Shown here piece by piece: positions 208 to 9,382 of a DNA stretch of 9,382 bases (position 1 is its first letter; each line of letters begins with the position of its first letter). The DNA lies in NCBI GenBank assembly GCA_964426185.1, contig CAYRPF010000040.1, positions 7,741 through 17,122 of the forward strand, given 5' to 3'. A program made the position numbers and the translations under genes. The notes below the pieces were generated by a model that was given only the letters and a program-made list of their open reading frames with translations, did not search any database and was not told the origin of the DNA. The stretch is from an uncultured archaeon (GTDB lineage: Archaea > Asgardarchaeota > Lokiarchaeia > Sigyniarchaeales > Promethearchaeaceae).

Positions 208-531
208 TTAATCCAAAGGTGTATCGATATCTTCTACCAGTTTACTCCCGGCTACGACTTGGTCTAATGAATGAATTACGCAATTCATACTAATCAAGAT
301 TTCCTGAATTTCATCGTAATCTAAATGCGTTCCTTCGATTATGACCTTACAAGTCGTTGTTAGTTTATCAACCTCATAAACGGTGATATTCACACTTACA
401 TCGTTAGAATTTTTACAACGGTTTATGAGTTCAGTTGCAACTATATTGATTTCCGGATCAAATGGTTTTAAGATATCAAGAACTAAACGTCTGATCATAG
501 GTTTATCAGTGGAGATATTTGTTTGAGACAT
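208..531 (-). CDS. DUF211 family protein (small conserved archaeal protein)
   Basis: Signature IRRLVLDILKP near the N-terminus, V-N-I-T-V-x-E-V-D in the middle, IEG-x-x-LDY, and C-terminal VIHSLDQVVAG-x-x-LVE. The 107-aa length fits the family. Confidence 0.9.
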   Translation of the reverse strand: MSQTNISTDKPMIRRLVLDILKPFDPEINIVATELINRCKNSNDVSVNITVYEVDKLTTTCKVIIEGTHLDYDEIQEILISMNCVIHSLDQVVAGSKLVEDIDTPLD

Positions 532-618: not shown

Positions 619-1086
619 TTATTTATCCTCGGTATTTTCATGAGATTTACAGTATTTTTTCAATAAAATCAGTGTTAAAATTGATGAGAACCAATCATAA
701 CCCAATCCAATTAATAAGATAGACAAAAATCGTGGATAGAATACTATGGTACTTACCTCTGGTATCACCATCAAGAAGCGAAAAGCACATGATACATATA
801 TGATAATCCTATAAGTATAGGGATCTTTTGTCGCATACCAAAGCAAAAATCCCAGAGCGAAGAAAGAAATTGCTGAAAACAAAAAAAATAGTGGAATCCC
901 CAAATCAATTTCTAATAAATCAGCGAATAAAGGAAAAGTGAAAAATGCTAGTGCGACAATCATCTCAACGATCCCGCTGAATTGTAGAAAATAAATAAAA
1001 AATTTCCGATTTGAAACCATTTCTACCATTTTTAGCATTTTTACCATTTCTATCTTCTCTATCATTATCTTGATTGTTCTTAACAA
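619..1086 (-). CDS. Small 4-TM integral membrane protein of unknown function; true start probably one of the ATGs at 1020-1065
   Basis: Four hydrophobic segments and a W-Y-A-x-x-D-P-x-x-x-R loop. The ORF-track start is a TTG, and the N-terminus is encoded by a 9-bp repeat. Confidence 0.8.
   Translation of the reverse strand: MLRTIKIMIEKIEMVKMLKMVEMVSNRKFFIYFLQFSGIVEMIVALAFFTFPLFADLLEIDLGIPLFFLFSAISFFALGFLLWYATKDPYTYRIIIYVSCAFRFLMVIPEVSTIVFYPRFLSILLIGLGYDWFSSILTLILLKKYCKSHENTEDK
1012..1065 (-). repeat. Degenerate 9-bp tandem repeat, 6 units
   Basis: Minus strand reads ATGATAGAG AAGATAGAA ATGGTAAAA ATGCTAAAA ATGGTAGAA ATGGTTTCA, encoding MIE KIE MVK MLK MVE MVS. Confidence 0.75.
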
Positions 1087-1099
1087 TTTAAGTAACTAT

Positions 1100-2068
1100 C
1101 TATATGCGATCCAACAGATTCTGAGCCGAATCCACTTTCTTATTGGAAATTCCCTTCTTTTTCTTTCGAATAATTAAAAAAGCGGCAATATTTCCAAAAA
1201 TAACTGCACCCCCGCCTATTCCTCCATAAATTAACAATTGTCGTCGATATTCTAGCCAATAGGGATTTTCATCTTCGTAAATTAATTCTAAAGAACTGGA
1301 ATCTAAGTAAATTCTGATAAAAATTCGTGATTCATCATTGGGGTTGACATATTCCATTTCTGATCGTAATAAAATACTCCACATCATATCATAATATAAT
1401 TTTAGGGTAATTTCTCCGTTCAAATTCAAGGTTAAATAATATGTAGGCAAAATTTGTTGATTCTTTCTTAAATCTTGAATTTCTGGACTCCATATAGGCG
1501 CAGCTACATAGGGATGATCTTTTCTTAGGGTAAGCATTACAGGATCCGATACTCTTAAAAAGGGAATTTGTTGAAAATCATGAAGAAAGTTAGTTGGTCT
1601 ATCAGAACTGTTTATCCAAAATATGGTATATGTTGCATTAGAAAAATTAGATCCACTATCAGGTAGATGTTCTTTACGATAGGAAAATTCTGTGATTAAT
1701 GAATCTTCATCTTGGTAATCCGTGAAAAAATCTGTATGTTCATCTCCAAATAGAAAAGCCAGTTTATCGATGACTTTTTCGTTATCAATCGGCTTGGATA
1801 GTTGATATTGGATGGTTCCATTTTCATAAAGTAAATTTGTGCCGTTAATTTGAAGATAAAGTTGAAAATCATCTGAATTGGGATTTTCATCTTCTATATC
1901 GTAGAAAATGCAATAACTGAGCGATACATAATCGGACGAGTTTTTTGGAGATAAATTTAACTGTGATTTTGCATTGAAATGCGATACTTCAAGATTACTA
2001 CCTATCCCACTAAAGAAAAACATTAGTAAAATGCATCCCGCGAGAAAAGTGGATTTCTCCTTGTTCAT
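1100..2068 (-). CDS. Hypothetical exported type I single-pass membrane protein
   Basis: N-terminal signal-like segment (MNKEKSTFLAGCILLMFFFSGIG), an acidic ectodomain with several N-x-S/T sequons (NGT x2, NFS, NAT, NSS, NLS), a C-terminal TM helix followed by RKKKK, and a short tail. Confidence 0.85.
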   Translation of the reverse strand: MNKEKSTFLAGCILLMFFFSGIGSNLEVSHFNAKSQLNLSPKNSSDYVSLSYCIFYDIEDENPNSDDFQLYLQINGTNLLYENGTIQYQLSKPIDNEKVIDKLAFLFGDEHTDFFTDYQDEDSLITEFSYRKEHLPDSGSNFSNATYTIFWINSSDRPTNFLHDFQQIPFLRVSDPVMLTLRKDHPYVAAPIWSPEIQDLRKNQQILPTYYLTLNLNGEITLKLYYDMMWSILLRSEMEYVNPNDESRIFIRIYLDSSSLELIYEDENPYWLEYRRQLLIYGGIGGGAVIFGNIAAFLIIRKKKKGISNKKVDSAQNLLDRI

Positions 2069-2096: not shown

Positions 2097-2813
2097 TTAA
2101 TTTTGATTTGGTTCCGTAGGTTGAATTTTACCGTGAGAAAGTATGAAATTCCGATCGGTAATCTCCTTTACGGAAGGATTATGCGACACTATTAGAATAG
2201 TAGTATTAAACTGTTTCAACTTGGCTAAATGATTTAAGATAATTTGGGCATTTTCCTCATCCAAATTGCCGGTTGGCTCATCACAAAGCACAATTACCGG
2301 GTCATTAACCAAAGCTCTAGCAATCGCCACGCGCTGCTGTTCTCCAATGCTTAATTGATAAGGAAATTTCTTGGTTTTTGATGTCATACCAAATTCAGCC
2401 AATAATTCTGCAGAACGCTGATGTTGCTCTTCTTGAGATTTTTTTAATAAATTCATTGGTAATTCAATATTCTGCTCAACAGTTAGAGTTTGGATAAGGT
2501 TGAATGTTTGAAATACAAATCCTATTTTTTGAAGTCGGATCTGCTGCCTCATCTTAGCCGAAAGATTAGAAGTATCGATGTCTGCAATCGTATAGACCCC
2601 AGAATCGTATGTATCCAGTAATCCAAGAATATTTAGAAGGGTTGATTTTCCAGAGCCGCTCGGCCCCATAATACTTACAATTTCTCCGCGGGAAATTTCT
2701 AAATCCACACCTCGTAATATATGTAATGATTCTGAGTATGTAATATAGGTTTTTTCTACATTTTTTAATGAAATAATAATAGTATGTTCTTTAATTTGAG
2801 AGTTCTCCGCCAT
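2097..2813 (-). CDS. ABC transporter ATP-binding protein, LolD/MacB/FtsE (type VII) family
   Basis: Walker A GPSGSGKST, Q-loop IGFVFQTFNL, signature LSIGEQQRVAIARAL, Walker B/D-loop VLCDEPTGNLD, H-switch VSHN. Confidence 0.96.
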   Translation of the reverse strand: MAENSQIKEHTIIISLKNVEKTYITYSESLHILRGVDLEISRGEIVSIMGPSGSGKSTLLNILGLLDTYDSGVYTIADIDTSNLSAKMRQQIRLQKIGFVFQTFNLIQTLTVEQNIELPMNLLKKSQEEQHQRSAELLAEFGMTSKTKKFPYQLSIGEQQRVAIARALVNDPVIVLCDEPTGNLDEENAQIILNHLAKLKQFNTTILIVSHNPSVKEITDRNFILSHGKIQPTEPNQN

Positions 2814-2837
2814 TTTTTAGTTCATTCCATTAAATTA

Positions 2838-3995
2838 TTAATACTTTTGTTTTAATTGTGAAAGTTGATATCTATGCATCCCTATCAAGGAGATAAGAAG
2901 TGCAAATCCAAAAACTGCACTGCTAATAATTAAAATATTTTGAAGAAACAATTCCCAGTGAAATGGATTGAAGATAAAACGGAATCCTTTGCTAAAACTG
3001 GAGAAAAATTGAGCTTCGGTATTTACTTTTACAATAATAAAGGCATACAAGATGGAAAAGATTCCAACCGAAGCAGGAACTCCAATCACGATTCCTAATC
3101 CCAAGAGAATCATATTTTCCATTATTATCGTTTTAAGAATAAGACCAGAACTTGAACCTAATACGCGAAGAATATCGAAATCTGCCTTTCTACTGAATAA
3201 ATTCATTATTTCCAATGAAAAAACAAATATGATAGATGCTCCTGCAGTAAAAACGCTGAGAACTTGAGTTAAGTTATTCATGAAAGTTCCTATTTGACCA
3301 TGTAGCTCTTCAATTTCTGAAGTAGTCAAAACATCTATTTCTGGATAATCTTTTTCAAAAAATGAAATTTTATCGGAATTGGCTTCTATCGCTTTAGAAA
3401 TGAAAATAATTGAAGTTTTTCCCACATTATTAGATAATTGTTCCAATTTCGTATGATCAACAATAATAATACGGTCTAAATATGAATATTGTGGAAAAAA
3501 CACCCCAACGATGGTAAAGTTATGATTCAACACTTCCATATTTTTCATATCCAAATATTTATTTCCCACAATTATCTCATCGGAATTCTGGGGCCAACGG
3601 CCTTGTTGAAGGGAAAGAGATTTAAATAATTCCTTTTGCTGCGAAATAGGCACCCCAAAAATGTAATTATTATAAAATGATAGCAAATCTTCACTATTAG
3701 GGACGATTAATAGAGGAATGGTATGTTCCTGAAAAGTGGAGTCAAGTTCAGTTTGAAAATCTAGGCTAATTGATGACCCAGTTGGAATTAACTGAATATA
3801 ACTTGTTCCACGCTCTACTACTTGATCATATTCTGGAAAAGGTCTAAAAAAGGTTGAAGTTAGAGAAGAGTAATAATCAGTCAAAAGAGCCATCACAACT
3901 GAACTGGTTAAACTTAATGCAATACCCACCACTGAAAGGATTGTGCGAACTCTCTTCTGGGAGAGATTATTAAATACATAATTGGATAACTTCAA
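2838..3995 (-). CDS. ABC transporter permease, MacB/FtsX/LolC-E family (second paralog)
   Basis: RTILSVVGIAL TM1, large extracellular domain with GRWP...EIIVG...FTIVGVF, coupling helix RKADFDILRVLG, three C-terminal TMs. TTG start with an upstream AGGAGG. Confidence 0.93.
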   Translation of the reverse strand: MKLSNYVFNNLSQKRVRTILSVVGIALSLTSSVVMALLTDYYSSLTSTFFRPFPEYDQVVERGTSYIQLIPTGSSISLDFQTELDSTFQEHTIPLLIVPNSEDLLSFYNNYIFGVPISQQKELFKSLSLQQGRWPQNSDEIIVGNKYLDMKNMEVLNHNFTIVGVFFPQYSYLDRIIIVDHTKLEQLSNNVGKTSIIFISKAIEANSDKISFFEKDYPEIDVLTTSEIEELHGQIGTFMNNLTQVLSVFTAGASIIFVFSLEIMNLFSRKADFDILRVLGSSSGLILKTIIMENMILLGLGIVIGVPASVGIFSILYAFIIVKVNTEAQFFSSFSKGFRFIFNPFHWELFLQNILIISSAVFGFALLISLIGMHRYQLSQLKQKY

Positions 3996-4001
3996 GATAT
4001 A

Positions 4002-5189
4002 TCATTCCTCCTTCCGAAAAGTTTGGACAATTGACTGTTTCATAGCACGAATCGATGGATAAACAGCTATAATCATTCCCACTACCAGAGATATAAAAAG
4101 TGTTTGAAAATATATGGATTGAGGAATTAAATTCATCATCTCGCGAGTATATTCAATAATACCGATAGTAGTATTATCTCCTTGAAAAACATAAAAACCG
4201 TACATAAAATAAAAGTTTCCAGTCAATAGGCTAACTAAATACCCCACTCCAGTAATGAATATGCCTTGAAGAAACACCATTATTCCGATATTAGACAACG
4301 GCATTCCAATAGCGCGTAGCATCCCAAATTCTCGTTCTTGTTCTTTGACGTTTAGCAACATCAATATAAAGATAAATAAACCGCTAATAAATAAAGGAAA
4401 AACACTCATTATAATATTAAATACATCTAACATCTGATAAAAAAAGCCAGTGGCTTCATTAAGTTCTTCTGAATCGATGAAATTAACTGATGGAAACTGA
4501 GATTCTACAGTATTTTCAAGATTTTGAAGTAAATCTGGGGTGTTTAAAATGGAAGAATCCCCTAAAACATACATCACCGAACAAAGACCTTCCATTTCAA
4601 AAAGCTGCTGCGTTTCCTCATAATCAACATAAATAAATTTATCAAAAAATACATTGGTTGACATCAATATTCCAGAAACGGTGAAATTGACACCTCGAAT
4701 AGGAATAGTACTATTCACCGCTAAATTTGGATATTTGACATTTGGTCCAACTACAATTTCATGTAATGGATCTTGCGGCCAATTTCCTTCTTGCAACCCA
4801 ACATTTTTCAAATAAAGATTCTGTAAATTATCAAAATTTATTCCCACAATGATATTTTTTAAAAATTTGAAATTAGTTTTATTACCAAAGTCTTTGAAAA
4901 TCACTGGAAGAGTATAGATAACTCCAGGGAAATTCAATATAATATCAGAAATATTATCGGGAATTTGAGATTCTAAGGGAAGAACTTGAACCACATTTGT
5001 TCCTTTGGCCATAACCATAAAAGAATTTTCGCTCATCATATACACTCTGTTTACAGAATCATCAAGCAAAGCAGAGTAAGCAGATATACCAAAAACCGCA
5101 CCTAACGAAACACCGAATCCTAAAATACACGCAAAATACCGAATTTTATGTTTTTTAAAAATCGAGAAGAAATAATTCCAAAGGTGCAT
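4002..5189 (-). CDS. ABC transporter permease, MacB/FtsX/LolC-E family (first paralog)
   Basis: N-terminal TM, extracellular domain with EGNWP...EIVVG...FTVSGIL, coupling helix EQEREFGMLRAIG, and C-terminal IIAVYPSIRA...FRKEE. Confidence 0.95.
   Translation of the reverse strand: MHLWNYFFSIFKKHKIRYFACILGFGVSLGAVFGISAYSALLDDSVNRVYMMSENSFMVMAKGTNVVQVLPLESQIPDNISDIILNFPGVIYTLPVIFKDFGNKTNFKFLKNIIVGINFDNLQNLYLKNVGLQEGNWPQDPLHEIVVGPNVKYPNLAVNSTIPIRGVNFTVSGILMSTNVFFDKFIYVDYEETQQLFEMEGLCSVMYVLGDSSILNTPDLLQNLENTVESQFPSVNFIDSEELNEATGFFYQMLDVFNIIMSVFPLFISGLFIFILMLLNVKEQEREFGMLRAIGMPLSNIGIMVFLQGIFITGVGYLVSLLTGNFYFMYGFYVFQGDNTTIGIIEYTREMMNLIPQSIYFQTLFISLVVGMIIAVYPSIRAMKQSIVQTFRKEE
4007..4013 (-). promoter_or_regulatory. 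Shine-Dalgarno-like AAGGAGG for the TTG start at 3995
   Basis: Minus strand reads AAGGAGG-AATGATATATC-TTG. The motif lies inside the last codons of the upstream permease, 11 nt from the start codon. Confidence 0.5.
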
Positions 5190-5343: not shown

Positions 5344-6762
5344 TTGATTAGCATGTATGAAAAAAATCCAGTAATCATCTATAATCTATTCCCTCCATTA
5401 GCAGGAAAAATTTCGAAATGGGAGCAAAGTTTACACCAAATTGCCGAGATGGGATTTACTTGGATATATATCAATCCAATAAATCAAAGAGGTTATTCAA
5501 ATTCCTTATATTCAATTAAAAATTACTTTCTGCTCGACTCTGCATTCGCAGATAGTAAAAATGATCAACAAGAATGGAATTCCTTTATTGAATTTGTACG
5601 AAATGCCCATAAAATTGGATTAAAAGTAATGCTTGATATTGTTATTAATCATACTGCAGTTGATGCTGTTTCTGAACATCCCAATTGGTACAAATACAAA
5701 TGGGTGTTAAGAAATCGCAGCAACCTCCATCCTGTAAGAATTTTTGAAGAAATTTTAAAATCTGAAATAAACTATGACAAAAATCGATTTCCACCAGAAA
5801 ATTTTGAACTTGTTTATATAGTGGCACCTCCTTATGCAATAAACCCCGTAAATACCAATGACATCCAAATTTGGGGGGATTTAGCAGAAATTAACTTTAA
5901 TGAACCCTACCTTCCTGAAATCCTAGAATTTTTCAAGAAATATTTGAAATTCTGTATTGATCTTGGAGTGGATGGATTTCGTGCTGATGCAGCCTATCAA
6001 GTTCCCGGCACTATTTGGAAAGAATTTATTGAATTTTGCAAGGAAGTCAATCCAGAGGTTATTTTTTGGGCCGAAACACTTGGAGGAAACTATGAACAGC
6101 ACGTTCAGCTGATGAACTCTGGCTTTGATTTTATCACAAACTCCAGTAAATGGTGGGATTTCACTGCCCCATGGTGTGTAGAACAGCATGAAGAATATGC
6201 AAAGATCGCTCCCAGCATTTCATTTCCTGAAACTCACGATACACCCAGATTAGCCGCTGAAAGCGGGGGTAGAAAAGATGTGCAAGTATTTCGATACTTG
6301 TTCGCCAGTTTCTTTTCTGAAGGATTGATGATGCCTATAGGCTATGAATTGGGAGCCACTGAACGATTGAGTGTTATAATGGAAGATTTCACCCAAATGG
6401 GTCAAACTTTATTTGATATTAGACGGGATATCCAAAAAATCAATACATTTAAGAAAAAATATCCTGGAATGATGGATGAAGGAAAATTGTACCATTACCC
6501 CTATGAGAATCTCGGTGTTTTAATCTTGAAAAAAGAACACTCCCAAAAACACAGCCAATTGCTTCTTATTTACAACAAAGATTGGCATAATGCTCAAAAA
6601 GTAGATCTCCCCGATATTCGAGAAATATTAAGTTACCAAAGCCCAATATTTCAAATTGATATTAAAAACAACCAAAAGCGGCTAGACAATTTTAAAATCA
6701 CAACTTGGCTTCCGCCCAACCATTTCTTACTCTATTATCAGCTCAATCAAGATTTAAATTAG
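5344..6762 (+). CDS. Cytoplasmic GH13 alpha-amylase-family glycoside hydrolase; start may be the ATG at 5353
   Basis: GH13 conserved regions DIVINHTA, GVDGFRADAA (nucleophile D215), FWAET (acid/base E244) and ETHD (D299). No signal peptide is visible. Confidence 0.95.
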   Translation: MISMYEKNPVIIYNLFPPLAGKISKWEQSLHQIAEMGFTWIYINPINQRGYSNSLYSIKNYFLLDSAFADSKNDQQEWNSFIEFVRNAHKIGLKVMLDIVINHTAVDAVSEHPNWYKYKWVLRNRSNLHPVRIFEEILKSEINYDKNRFPPENFELVYIVAPPYAINPVNTNDIQIWGDLAEINFNEPYLPEILEFFKKYLKFCIDLGVDGFRADAAYQVPGTIWKEFIEFCKEVNPEVIFWAETLGGNYEQHVQLMNSGFDFITNSSKWWDFTAPWCVEQHEEYAKIAPSISFPETHDTPRLAAESGGRKDVQVFRYLFASFFSEGLMMPIGYELGATERLSVIMEDFTQMGQTLFDIRRDIQKINTFKKKYPGMMDEGKLYHYPYENLGVLILKKEHSQKHSQLLLIYNKDWHNAQKVDLPDIREILSYQSPIFQIDIKNNQKRLDNFKITTWLPPNHFLLYYQLNQDLN

Positions 6763-6798: not shown

Positions 6799-8172
6799 CT
6801 AAAAAATCGTTTGCAAGAGCAATCCAAGGAAAAAGAGAATAATTCCAAAAATCATGGAAAAAGGCAAGGCTGGAAGCATGCGTTTTTTGGTTAAGAGTAA
6901 ATATAATGTTAAAAAAGCCCCAGCAATGACTCCAATTATGGTTAGTCCTGTCAATAACCAGCTACCATAACTAAGAAAAACATTCGCCACCAGCGCGGAG
7001 TAAAGAATAAGATCTCCTGAACCAAGCTCGATTTCAACGTGTTTGTAATCAATTTCTTTTCCTTCAGACTCTCGGATTTGGAGAGAAACAAATTGCTCGT
7101 AATTTGGGATTTGGTCAATGCCGATTTTTCCTTCATCAAGCATAGTCTGAAGCCGTTTATGCCTTTCCATCTGGTTATCTTGAATCATTTGCCCAATTTT
7201 TCCAAGCGGTCCTTTAAACACCGTAATCAAATCCCAAATTGAGAGAAAAATCGCAAATGCAAAAGTGGTCCAAGTAGGTAAAGAGATCCCGATAATTGAT
7301 CCCATAAAAATTGAATAGAACAACACAATTGCATTCCGCTGTCGTAAACTAAGTCTGTTTCCAAAGAAAAGAACCATTAAAACAATAAAAAGTAAGATAG
7401 AACCATAGAAAAAGCCTAAATATATCCCGTTGAACAGGGGGTTTTCTAAAATACTTGGAGGACCTTGCTCTGCATAAATGGTGAAAAACACCGTAATGAA
7501 AAACATGAAACCATACCAAGAATAGAAGAAAATAATTAATCCCATAATGATTTTGAAGGCAATCATTCCAAATTTTTTTATCAAAAAGTAAATCACGGTG
7601 ATAAAGATAGCAGATATCATTACAGGCATGAATCCGTTATACAAGATCTGCCAAAAATTCTCTTCATTTGGATATGGTGCCACATTAATATCAATATCTG
7701 CTTGGATTTTTGCTGCCCAGCCTAAAAAGGTAGCACACGTAATACTAATTAAAATTGGGATAAGAACATAAATAATCTTGACTCGAAATGTGCCTAATAA
7801 TTCTGTAAAACTAATCGGACCATCAGAATGTTTTTGTTTGCCACGATTTCTACGTAAGTTTTCAAGTCGATCTAATTCTTTGGATATTATGGAATCAATT
7901 TTACCTTTCAATTCTGTGCGCATTTCATCAGTTAAGGACAGGCTAAATTCAATTCCTACCAAATTATTGTATTTATTATAGATAGGATTTGCATGTAAAG
8001 GAATATTTTGAGCATGAAAGTCTGGAAAAACTTGTGCATCAAGAGAATGAAGTAGAATTTCCGCCAATTCACGAGATAAAGCATGTTTAAAACGAATAGT
8101 TGCTTCAGAATTGATTGAAGAATCAAGTATTTCATCACCCATCTCATTTAAATCATCGGGAATCTCGGCCAT
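6799..8172 (-). CDS. Presenilin-family intramembrane aspartyl protease (GxGD, peptidase family A22)
   Basis: About 9 TM segments. LSIWDL carries catalytic D314 and is followed by KGPL. ELGSGDLILYS carries catalytic D387. LPALPFS is the PAL motif at P434. Confidence 0.96.
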   Translation of the reverse strand: MAEIPDDLNEMGDEILDSSINSEATIRFKHALSRELAEILLHSLDAQVFPDFHAQNIPLHANPIYNKYNNLVGIEFSLSLTDEMRTELKGKIDSIISKELDRLENLRRNRGKQKHSDGPISFTELLGTFRVKIIYVLIPILISITCATFLGWAAKIQADIDINVAPYPNEENFWQILYNGFMPVMISAIFITVIYFLIKKFGMIAFKIIMGLIIFFYSWYGFMFFITVFFTIYAEQGPPSILENPLFNGIYLGFFYGSILLFIVLMVLFFGNRLSLRQRNAIVLFYSIFMGSIIGISLPTWTTFAFAIFLSIWDLITVFKGPLGKIGQMIQDNQMERHKRLQTMLDEGKIGIDQIPNYEQFVSLQIRESEGKEIDYKHVEIELGSGDLILYSALVANVFLSYGSWLLTGLTIIGVIAGAFLTLYLLLTKKRMLPALPFSMIFGIILFFLGLLLQTIF

Positions 8173-8196
8173 CTTATGTATTAATAATAAAAGCGC

Positions 8197-8211
8197 TTTA
8201 ATTAACTTCCC
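8197..8211 (-). promoter_or_regulatory. Candidate BRE/TATA promoter for a leaderless presenilin transcript
   Basis: Minus strand GGGAAG-TTAATTAAA occupies -39 to -25 relative to the ATG at 8172, the usual archaeal spacing. No SD is visible. Confidence 0.4.
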
Positions 8212-8564
8212 GCTTGTAGTTAAAAGGAATAACTAGATAAAATGAATAAAAGGAGAAAGCGAAAATCTAAAAAATGAAAGCTCGACGCGTCCCCTTCTTT
8301 TTTTTTCGCAAGACTTCCTTTAACGAAACAAAACTGATTCCCTAAAAGAGAATATTTGTTTGTTAAAAGATATGAAAGAAGGAATAAAGGTCTTTCAAAT
8401 TAGTCTCCGCAATCTCTATAATATTTATCTACCATTAATGTTTATTAAGTTTTTGCTCTAAAGTTAATAAAAGATGGCCCAAATTTGAATCGACCAAATC
8501 ATTTATGGATAAAATGAGAGTCAAAGAATATAATATATTTTAAAAAATTTACATATTATGGAAA

Positions 8565-9382
8565 TTAAAAAACTACCCCAACTTTTCGACAGATCCCACG
8601 AATTAATTCAAAGGGAACTATGCATCCGAACACCGCAAACCCGATAGAAACAATTAAATCCCATATGTGCAGAAATATAAGCTGAAATTTCAATCCAATA
8701 GAATATAGAAACACCTGCCATCCTGGAATATATATAATTGAAAATAATAAACCGAATAATATAAATGCTAAAAGAATTGTCACCCAATTCATGTCTTCTC
8801 GAAGTGTAGTTAATAAGCTTTTATTTGGTCTCCGTACTTGAATTGCCATGACAAATTCTGCAATAAAAATAGTGGTGGCCAACATGGTGAGCGTTTTAGC
8901 GGTTTTTAAGTCTGTATTCCCCCATAAATGAGCAGTTGCTTGGGTAAAAATATACTTGCTATCTAACGACCCATGAGAAAAATTAACTGAAAACATGGGA
9001 TAGATATCACTTGAAACAAGAAAATAGATACCAAACATAGTTGTCATCAAAAAAATCCCGTAACTGATTAAAAGAATCAAAAATTGGCGAGAAATAATTT
9101 CCTGTGAATCTCTAGGATGTCCTTTCATGACATCATCAGGAATTTTATCAAATGTTAAAATCATACCGGTTAGTGAATGAAGTGTAGCAGAAATAAGTAA
9201 AAACATCTGCAAAAATTCTGGATCAAACCAATAGGGTTTATCCAAGATAACGGAAAGAATTAAGTTAACTAATCCTTCAAAAATATTAATACATATAAAG
9301 AAAAATACAACAGATCGAATGTTAGCAAAAATTCCTCTCCCACGACGGATACCTTCGGTTATAGAAATAAAGGAATCATCAG
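8565..9382 (-). CDS. Cation-transporting P-type ATPase (P2-like), C-terminal part M5-M10; the gene starts beyond the window edge
   Basis: The frame is open from 9380 and reads DDSFISITEGIRRGRGIFANIRSVVFFFICINIFEG, matching the P2 DDNF...EGR.I..NI motif. It continues with DVMKGHPR, AKTLTML and IIYIPG..VF. The ORF-track start at 9245 is an internal TTG. Confidence 0.93.
   Translation of the reverse strand, partial: DDSFISITEGIRRGRGIFANIRSVVFFFICINIFEGLVNLILSVILDKPYWFDPEFLQMFLLISATLHSLTGMILTFDKIPDDVMKGHPRDSQEIISRQFLILLISYGIFLMTTMFGIYFLVSSDIYPMFSVNFSHGSLDSKYIFTQATAHLWGNTDLKTAKTLTMLATTIFIAEFVMAIQVRRPNKSLLTTLREDMNWVTILLAFILFGLLFSIIYIPGWQVFLYSIGLKFQLIFLHIWDLIVSIGFAVFGCIVPFELIRGICRKVGVVF

Follow-up and report, generated by a model that had tools for sequence, protein, structure and literature searches.

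Presenilin forms the catalytic core of gamma-secretase, a complex with roles in Notch signalling and in Alzheimer's disease, and the archaeal single-chain enzyme PSH has provided a functional model of a presenilin that is active without partner subunits. To our knowledge PSH, which is a distant relative, is the only characterised prokaryotic presenilin model. Eukaryote-like presenilins were already pointed out in Loki and MK-D1 by Russum et al. 2021 (PLoS One, PMC7997004), who filed these homologues under the presenilin endoplasmic reticulum (ER) Ca2+ leak channel family TC 1.A.54, and the observation was restated by Akil et al. 2022 (PMC9433394), who linked these proteins to Ca2+-regulated gelsolin/actin. 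These two passing mentions are all that was found on Asgard presenilins in the literature searched, with no phylogenetic, structural or biochemical study among it, and two supplementary files of a 2026 Nature paper on eukaryogenesis contain nothing on presenilin. Homologues are named in the databases either 'hypothetical protein' or 'presenilin-like A22 family membrane protease', and those of MK-D1 (DSAG12_00171) and L. ossiferum (NEF87_001720) are annotated as hypothetical. Here we describe P0001, a presenilin gene within a 9,382-nucleotide stretch of a Lokiarchaeial Asgard genome (contig CAYRPF010000040.1, positions 7,741 to 17,122; referred to below as the window), which a first-pass annotation of the DNA had singled out as strongly eukaryote-like and as possibly lying near the ancestral form of the catalytic subunit in gamma-secretase.

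P0001 is a real, intact gene, and adds one member to a known but uncharacterised kind of presenilin. The open reading frame (ORF) list and translation give a single ORF with an ATG start and no internal stops, and the start codon is backed by the homologues, in which the N-terminus M-[AP]-E-I-P is kept. The range initially assigned to it, 6799–7800, corresponds approximately to residues 125–457, i.e. to the membrane core, and the gene extends to 8172 (Table 1). Codon by codon translation bears out the intact WD (D314), GSGD (D387) and PALP (P434) motifs reported earlier. Among 78 aligned archaeal and eukaryotic homologues D314, G321, G384, G386, D387, P434 and P437 are invariant columns; within the catalytic block of the sixth transmembrane helix (TM6) V318 is also invariant and P322 nearly so. 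This block aligns to YDLVAV..KGPL of PSEN1 (HMMER), and the resemblance to PSEN1 that the first-pass annotation had described is real: the TM6 WD/YD...KGPL, GxGD and TM8-9 KK.LPALP blocks all align to solved PSEN1/PSEN2 chains, with an overall similarity to presenilin far above chance (PF01080, E 6e-20; PSEN2 chain 7y5x_B, E 1.4e-9). D314 and D387 are 73 residues apart, and D387 and P434 are separated by 47 residues, as had been claimed, against 48 in PSEN1; however, the latter spacing is 45–48 in TACK, PSH and eukaryotes alike, and is not diagnostic of presenilin type. The PALP motif is mostly PGLP in other Asgard groups, and PALP is also present in two Thermoproteota (TACK) sequences. Immediately before TM1 is a juxtamembrane motif in which L126 is invariant and F122 nearly so (21 sequences), and which is kept in short forms of the protein too.

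The family assignment is clear from profile searches. Presenilin (PF01080) is the only Pfam family matched by P0001 (71.8 bits, E 6e-20; cut-off 34.3), and among solved structures its sequence matches only human PSEN2 and PSEN1 (E 1.4e-9 to 7.5e-8), with no PSH chain among the PDB matches at E<=1. There is no match to the SPP (PF04258) or PSH (PF06550) families at E<=0.01, PF04258 has no match in the whole genome at E<=1, and the NCBIfam PSH equivalog model NF041679, against which a true PSH scores 285 bits, does not match P0001. The hidden Markov model (HMM) comparison that had been proposed thus sets P0001 apart from PSH and SPP, and the maximum-likelihood (ML) tree places P0001 outside the PSH clade, across a branch supported at 100/99, and not within the ordinary PSH group. 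P0001 is therefore a presenilin-type (PF01080) enzyme, and not PSH-type or SPP-type, combining the family profile, the two catalytic aspartates, PAL(P) and a predicted nine-transmembrane fold.

That fold was modelled with AlphaFold2 (AF2) from 78 homologues, and the resulting prediction (pLDDT 88.8, pTM 0.79) has core helices at residues 137–157, 173–201, 203–236, 245–270, 276–297, 300–320, 385–402, 405–429 and 435–456. PSEN1 chains are the best Foldseek matches of the model (E 1e-8, TMt 0.70–0.72), followed by PSH (4e-5, TMt 0.70) and SPPL2a (9k93; 5e-4, TMt 0.63). The model thus gives P0001 the nine-transmembrane presenilin fold, and structure by itself does not tell PSEN-like from PSH-like proteins (TMt 0.70–0.72 vs 0.70). 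The TM6-TM7 loop (residues 324–379) is predicted to be partly helical at lower confidence (pLDDT 56–84). A short predicted strand, 380–384, lies directly before GSGD and aligns with residues 378–382 of PSEN1, and a second predicted strand, 128–132, falls within the juxtamembrane motif; because these are the only strands outside the N-terminal domain, they would most simply pair with each other.

Several patterns emerge from comparison with the known systems. First, P0001 shares with human PSEN1 and PSEN2 (PF01080; MEROPS A22A) the Pfam family, the nine-helix fold, [YW]D...KGPL in TM6, GxGD in TM7 and PALP before TM9. It differs from them in that only about 21% of residues are identical across the conserved core, the TM6-TM7 loop is approximately half as long (73 residues between the aspartates, compared to a eukaryotic median of 144), W replaces Y before the first aspartate and S replaces L in GxGD, and a folded N-terminal alpha/beta domain is present, and the genome yielded no genes for nicastrin, APH-1 or PEN-2. 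Secondly, PSH (MCMJR1-type; NF041679, PF06550; PDB 4hyg) is likewise an archaeal single-chain GxGD protein with nine transmembrane helices, but it is set apart by profile and by tree, is rare in Asgard genomes (see below), and lacks an N-terminal domain, having only 3–6 residues before TM1. Thirdly, the SPP/SPPL proteins (PF04258; MEROPS A22B) share the GxGD architecture and the overall fold, but P0001 lacks the SPP-type motif context as well as a match to the profile.

Presenilins of this type are widespread in the Asgard archaea. PF01080 matches are present in 307 of 400 Asgard genomes (255 of them above the cut-off) and in 12 of the 13 genomes of the host's own family, and there are none in 14 control prokaryotes; strong PSH-type (PF06550) genes were found in two of the 400. 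The PF01080-type presenilin, which is nearer to the human enzyme than PSH is, is therefore the standard Asgard form (307/400 vs 2/400). Short forms of about 290–310 amino acids (aa) score best with PF01080, e.g. those of Hodarchaeota (82 bits), Wukongarchaeota (80 bits) and the Thermofilum-cluster (55 bits), with scores of 44–64 bits in Helarchaeota, Asgardarchaeia, Hecatella and another Thermoprotei form, and precomputed database annotation assigns PF01080 to named relatives in Njordarchaeum, Odinarchaeia, Borrarchaeum and Atabeyarchaeia. A presenilin type distinct from PSH is thus found across the Asgard archaea together with some Thermoproteota (TACK). We note that a PSH-type gene in the Asgard bin G057 (L034:1447-2355, +; PF06550, 242 bits) lies on a 5.9-kb contig, is 97% identical to a Bathyarchaeota protein and is probably bin contamination; it was used as outgroup only.

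The trees sampled LokiF1 (Promethearchaeaceae), LokiF3 (a neighbouring Lokiarchaeial family), other named Asgard lineages, Thermoproteota, 16–23 eukaryotic presenilins (several of them named: mite, Acanthamoeba, chytrid, nematode, sponge and tick) and a PSH outgroup. In the careful tree (IQ-TREE, LG+C20+F+G4 PMSF; 66 rows, 336 columns) PSH is split from TACK, Asgard and eukaryotes together at 100/99, three of the four Thermoproteota branch next after PSH, with the long-branch Hecatella falling beside the Asgard group, and the gene tree broadly matches taxonomy. LokiF1 is monophyletic (100/100), and P0001 is nested in a LokiF1 plus LokiF3 clade (100/99) with the eukaryotes outside; these are monophyletic on a stem of 2.59 substitutions, which attaches close to the base of the Asgard sequences but is weakly supported there (95/64 and 94/70). 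Of the suggestion that P0001 is close to the gamma-secretase ancestor, one part stands, namely that the family is on the eukaryotic side of the PSH split, and the other is not supported, since P0001 itself belongs to a clade that excludes the eukaryotes. P0001 has been inherited vertically and is an ordinary representative of a presenilin family common to most Asgard archaea and some Thermoproteota.

The same picture emerges from the conserved core. Mean core identity to the eukaryotic presenilins is 21.2% for LokiF1, 20.9% for LokiF3, 22.7% for the Hel/Hod group, 21.5% for other Asgard, 21.2% for Thermoproteota and 17.6% for PSH, and the columns exclusively common with the eukaryotic consensus number two in LokiF1 and three in Thermoproteota. 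Because core identity is similar in all Asgard and TACK groups and exclusive columns are few in LokiF1, the eukaryote-likeness is a property of the family. Among prokaryotic proteins, it is the Asgard/TACK presenilin family as a whole, and not P0001 itself, that stands closest to eukaryotic presenilin; P0001 is a typical Lokiarchaeial member, and its clade has no special signal toward eukaryotes.

A closer relationship would have the Promethearchaeaceae (LokiF1) clade as the specific sister of eukaryotic presenilin and the best living proxy for the catalytic ancestor of gamma-secretase, and several points weigh on that side and against the placement just given. A quick ML tree (69 rows) joined the eukaryotes to LokiF1 as sisters (SH-aLRT 97) inside a clade of Loki and eukaryotes (99), although this tree included a very long branch, P0134, joined to the eukaryotes; the sisterhood, which disappeared once the sampling of named Asgard lineages was enlarged and the search made careful, and which was flagged as a long-branch join, was dropped, and the careful tree joins LokiF1 to LokiF3. 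The approximately unbiased (AU) test does not reject eukaryotes plus LokiF1 (dlnL 2.8, p 0.45), but eukaryotes plus Hod/Njord/Atabey are equally unrejected (dlnL 10.9, p 0.27). The outgroup is narrow, being Bathyarchaeia-like PSH only, and the trees are without eukaryotic SPP/SPPL. LokiF1 also has the highest scores, by a slight margin, against a eukaryote-only HMM (68–110 bits, most of them 82–110); the scores form a gradient across the archaeal groups, with 55–91 bits for LokiF3-type proteins (one at 35), 27–86 for other Asgard and unlabelled archaeal forms, 37–60 for Thermoproteota and at most 17 for PSH, and LokiF1 stands no higher than other groups in core identity or in exclusive columns (two vs three in TACK). 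In layout LokiF1 is nearer to the eukaryotes than the other archaeal groups are, with a median of 75 residues between the catalytic aspartates (LokiF3 54, other Asgard 41, TACK 50, PSH 62, eukaryotes 144) and of 125 residues before TM1 (9–48 in other Asgard groups and Thermoproteota, 63 in eukaryotes). However, of the features common to LokiF1 and eukaryotes – PALP, a TM6-TM7 loop longer than in any other archaeal group, and a long N-terminus – PALP occurs in Thermoproteota too, and no resemblance in sequence to the eukaryotic N-terminus was found for the N-terminal domain. Because the position of the eukaryotes in the tree is weakly supported, the sisterhood keeps some probability, but we consider it unlikely. 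It is similarly doubtful that eukaryotic presenilin descends specifically, by descent or early transfer, from a presenilin of the Promethearchaeaceae type, with its long N-terminus, enlarged TM6-TM7 loop and PALP; if it did, the gamma-secretase catalytic subunit would have a Lokiarchaeial and not a Heimdall/Hod origin, and the stand-alone enzymes of the Promethearchaeaceae would offer the closest model alive today of the ancestor that preceded the complex.

Three individual sequences in these trees are worthy of comment. P0134 (310 aa, GAGD...PALP), whose branch is 2.5 long and joined the eukaryote stem in the quick tree, scores 27 bits against the eukaryote HMM, and may have pulled the eukaryotes toward LokiF1. 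The presenilin of P0418, labelled Hodarchaeota, groups tightly with Helarchaeota (100/99), and that of P0459, labelled Odinarchaeota, with the Lokiarchaeial f3 family (98/94); these placements suggest either mislabelled metagenome-assembled genomes or recent transfer among Asgard lineages.

Within the host genome, which is 92% complete, neither Aph-1 nor nicastrin (PF06105, PF05450) has a match at E<=1, and the only PEN-2 (PF10251) matches are 17-bit noise containing stop codons. With no nicastrin, APH-1 or PEN-2 genes in the genome, stand-alone action is the most likely mode, and we conclude that P0001 probably provides its Lokiarchaeial Asgard host with an intramembrane aspartyl protease of the presenilin type (GxGD, MEROPS A22A-like) that stands alone. 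Two considerations count against this conclusion: the absence of partner genes is that given by profile searches of a draft genome, in which PEN-2 is too small to exclude, and proteolysis, substrates and stand-alone activity would be ascribed to Asgard presenilins by homology. By analogy with PSEN1 and PSH, D314 in TM6 and D387 in TM7 would activate a water molecule within the membrane, and P0001 would cleave single-pass membrane proteins within their transmembrane helix, acting without partners as PSH does. The short strand before GSGD may help to hold the substrate, like the equivalent strand of PSEN1, and both the N-terminus and the TM6-TM7 loop would be on the cytoplasmic side.

A Ca2+ leak role has also been proposed for presenilins and PSH, and transporter surveys have taken it for granted in the Asgard homologues. 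P0001 could accordingly be mainly a cation (Ca2+) leak channel and not a protease, for which the placing of the Loki/MK-D1 homologues in TC 1.A.54 (Russum et al. 2021, PMC7997004), their tie to Ca2+-regulated gelsolin/actin (Akil et al. 2022, PMC9433394) and the P-type cation ATPase gene that adjoins P0001 (8565–9380) can be cited. However, the ATPase neighbour was not found kept within approximately 1.5 kb in other loci, and channel activity would not exclude proteolysis; moreover, the catalytic and substrate-handling residues are invariant family-wide, which argues for selection for proteolysis. No result obtained here speaks for a leak role, and we regard a mainly channel-like P0001 as very unlikely and prefer the stand-alone protease.

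A search for Aph-1 across the 400 Asgard genomes gave a single match, in genome G009 of another Asgard family: an ORF of 242 aa (L036:1468-2196, +) that passes the Pfam Aph-1 cut-off nearly full-length. It was rejected as an APH-1 as it scores 52 bits with YhfC compared to 26.6 with Aph-1. The YhfC intramembrane metalloprotease is a clan relative of APH-1; APH-1 thus has prokaryotic clan relatives, and archaeal Aph-1 matches need a YhfC check.

The folded N-terminal domain of about 90 aa and the longest TM6-TM7 loop among the archaeal forms are distinctive for the Promethearchaeaceae subclade, and the N-terminal domain of this clade is previously undescribed. It follows a disordered tip (residues 1–24 in the AF2 model) and is predicted to be a compact beta-alpha-beta-beta-alpha unit, with pLDDT of 89–97 in the full model and 90–93 when modelled alone. 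Where the Promethearchaeaceae clade has the long form, F28, P63 and F76 are kept together with NPIYN and GIDF blocks, and the sequence alignment shows the domain to be missing from the MK-D1-type short forms. For the domain no Pfam match, no usable ESM-Atlas feature match and no sequence similarity to the N-terminus of eukaryotic presenilins were found. Atlas structures reach a TM of at most 0.52 and belong to unrelated families, and the best matches across the PDB (Pcc1, KH, ferredoxin-like; Z 5.8) lie within the background and share only a generic alpha/beta arrangement, so that no fold family was assigned. The domain and the enlarged loop are additions of the subclade, and we speculate that they have a regulatory or substrate-recruiting role.

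The contig is archaeal, as had been supposed, and the host is a Lokiarchaeial Asgard archaeon of the genus Harpocratesius, in the family Promethearchaeaceae to which MK-D1 and L. ossiferum also belong; its genome is 3.26 Mb. All 41 close homologues of P0001 are from Promethearchaeota, and it shares 69% identity with a Harpocratesius protein, 46% with DSAG12_00171 of P. syntrophicum MK-D1 and 43% with NEF87_001720 of L. ossiferum. The MK-D1 and L. ossiferum proteins are exactly those encoded at loci in two closed genomes from this GTDB family, the protein in a closed genome of the same genus matches that of Harpocratesius at 94.7% identity, and the genus assignment is made because of these locus-protein identities. 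The MK-D1 and L. ossiferum proteins (43–46% identity) belong with P0001 in the LokiF1 clade (100/100) and have both GSGD and PALP. In L. ossiferum the N-terminal domain is likewise present, but the protein contains an insertion of eight residues between GSGD and PALP, and that of MK-D1 is 376 aa long and without the domain.

The best Pfam and PDB matches of P0001 are eukaryotic presenilins, as would be seen if the gene had been acquired from a eukaryote by horizontal transfer or if the contig were eukaryotic contamination of the bin. However, its neighbours are archaeal or prokaryotic (DUF211, a MacB-type ABC transporter and FtsX, a GH13-like amylase and a P-type ATPase), there are no introns, and GC content is uniform across the window at 31–37%. 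Exact orthologues are located in the closed chromosomes of MK-D1 and L. ossiferum, the family is present in Thermoproteota as well as in most Asgard genomes with a broadly taxonomic tree, and the eukaryotes form a single clade on a long stem and are not donors of a nested archaeal clade. An origin of P0001 from a eukaryote is thus extremely improbable, and both contamination and transfer were rejected on the grounds of the archaeal neighbours, the closed-genome orthologues and the tree topology.

Table 1. Presenilin gene P0001, its parts, and the other features of the 9,382-nucleotide window (positions are those of the window).
Feature	Position	Strand	Basis
Complete presenilin-type gene, P0001, 457 aa	6799..8172	-	ORF list and translation; PF01080 71.8 bits; stop codon 6799-6801
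N-terminal soluble alpha/beta domain, residues 25-113	7834..8100	-	AF2, conserved blocks
Juxtamembrane motif P-I-S-F-T-E-L-L-G-T-F-R-V-K, residues 119-132, immediately before TM1	7777..7818	-	Conservation, AF2
Nine-helix presenilin membrane core, residues 133-457	6802..7776	-	AF2, Foldseek
TM6 catalytic block W-D-L-I-T-V-F-K-G-P-L; catalytic Asp D314 at 7231-7233	7204..7236	-	Translation, alignment
TM6-TM7 cytoplasmic loop (predicted), residues 324-379	7036..7203	-	AF2, spacing counts
TM7 G-S-G-D (G384-S-G-D387); catalytic Asp D387 at 7012-7014	7012..7023	-	Translation, alignment
P-A-L-P, P434-P437, start of TM9	6862..6873	-	Translation, alignment to PSEN1 PALP
Putative promoter region, A/T-rich TTTTATTATTA box ~15-25 nt upstream of ATG	8173..8230	-	Sequence reading alone
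GH13/alpha-amylase-like gene (hDGE_amylase and Alpha-amylase domains)	5344-6762	+	Pfam
P-type cation-transporting ATPase, C-terminal part (Cation_ATPase_C), runs off window end	8565-9380	-	Pfam
Three-gene MacB-type ABC exporter cluster	2097-5189	-	Pfam
FtsX/MacB_PCD permeases, two	4002-5189 and 2838-3995	-	Pfam
ABC ATPase of MacB-type cluster	2097-2813	-	Pfam
322-aa protein, N-terminal hydrophobic segment, C-terminal membrane anchor then KKKK tail, no Pfam family	1100-2068	-	
155-aa polytopic membrane protein, no Pfam family	619-1086	-	
DUF211 gene (COG1888, archaeal cluster)	208-531		

The presenilin gene lies tail-to-tail with the amylase-like gene, with a gap of 36 bp, and because the two are convergent they do not form one operon. 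The amylase-like neighbour (40–63% identity) adjoins the presenilin gene in three genera of the family (loci L006, L007, L008, L011, L012 and L017), but was not seen within approximately 1.5 kb of it in MK-D1 or L. ossiferum. The P-type ATPase gene is upstream of the presenilin gene across a 392-bp A/T-rich spacer, and was not found within approximately 1.5 kb of presenilin in the other loci checked. The position of the putative promoter box suggests a short or absent leader on the presenilin transcript. No Rfam family and no tRNA turned up when the window was scanned for them.

The presence of PF01080-type presenilins in Asgard archaea without the partner genes supports the picture of a stand-alone origin of the eukaryotic enzyme. 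It would have begun as a protease of the Asgard/TACK type acting by itself, with nicastrin, APH-1 and PEN-2 recruited later. The Asgard presenilins are small and probably self-sufficient, and may model the PSEN mechanism better than PSH does; such presenilins are also present in the cultured P. syntrophicum MK-D1 and L. ossiferum. The value of these findings is in the family-level picture and in the tractable stand-alone models that the family offers, and not in P0001 in particular.

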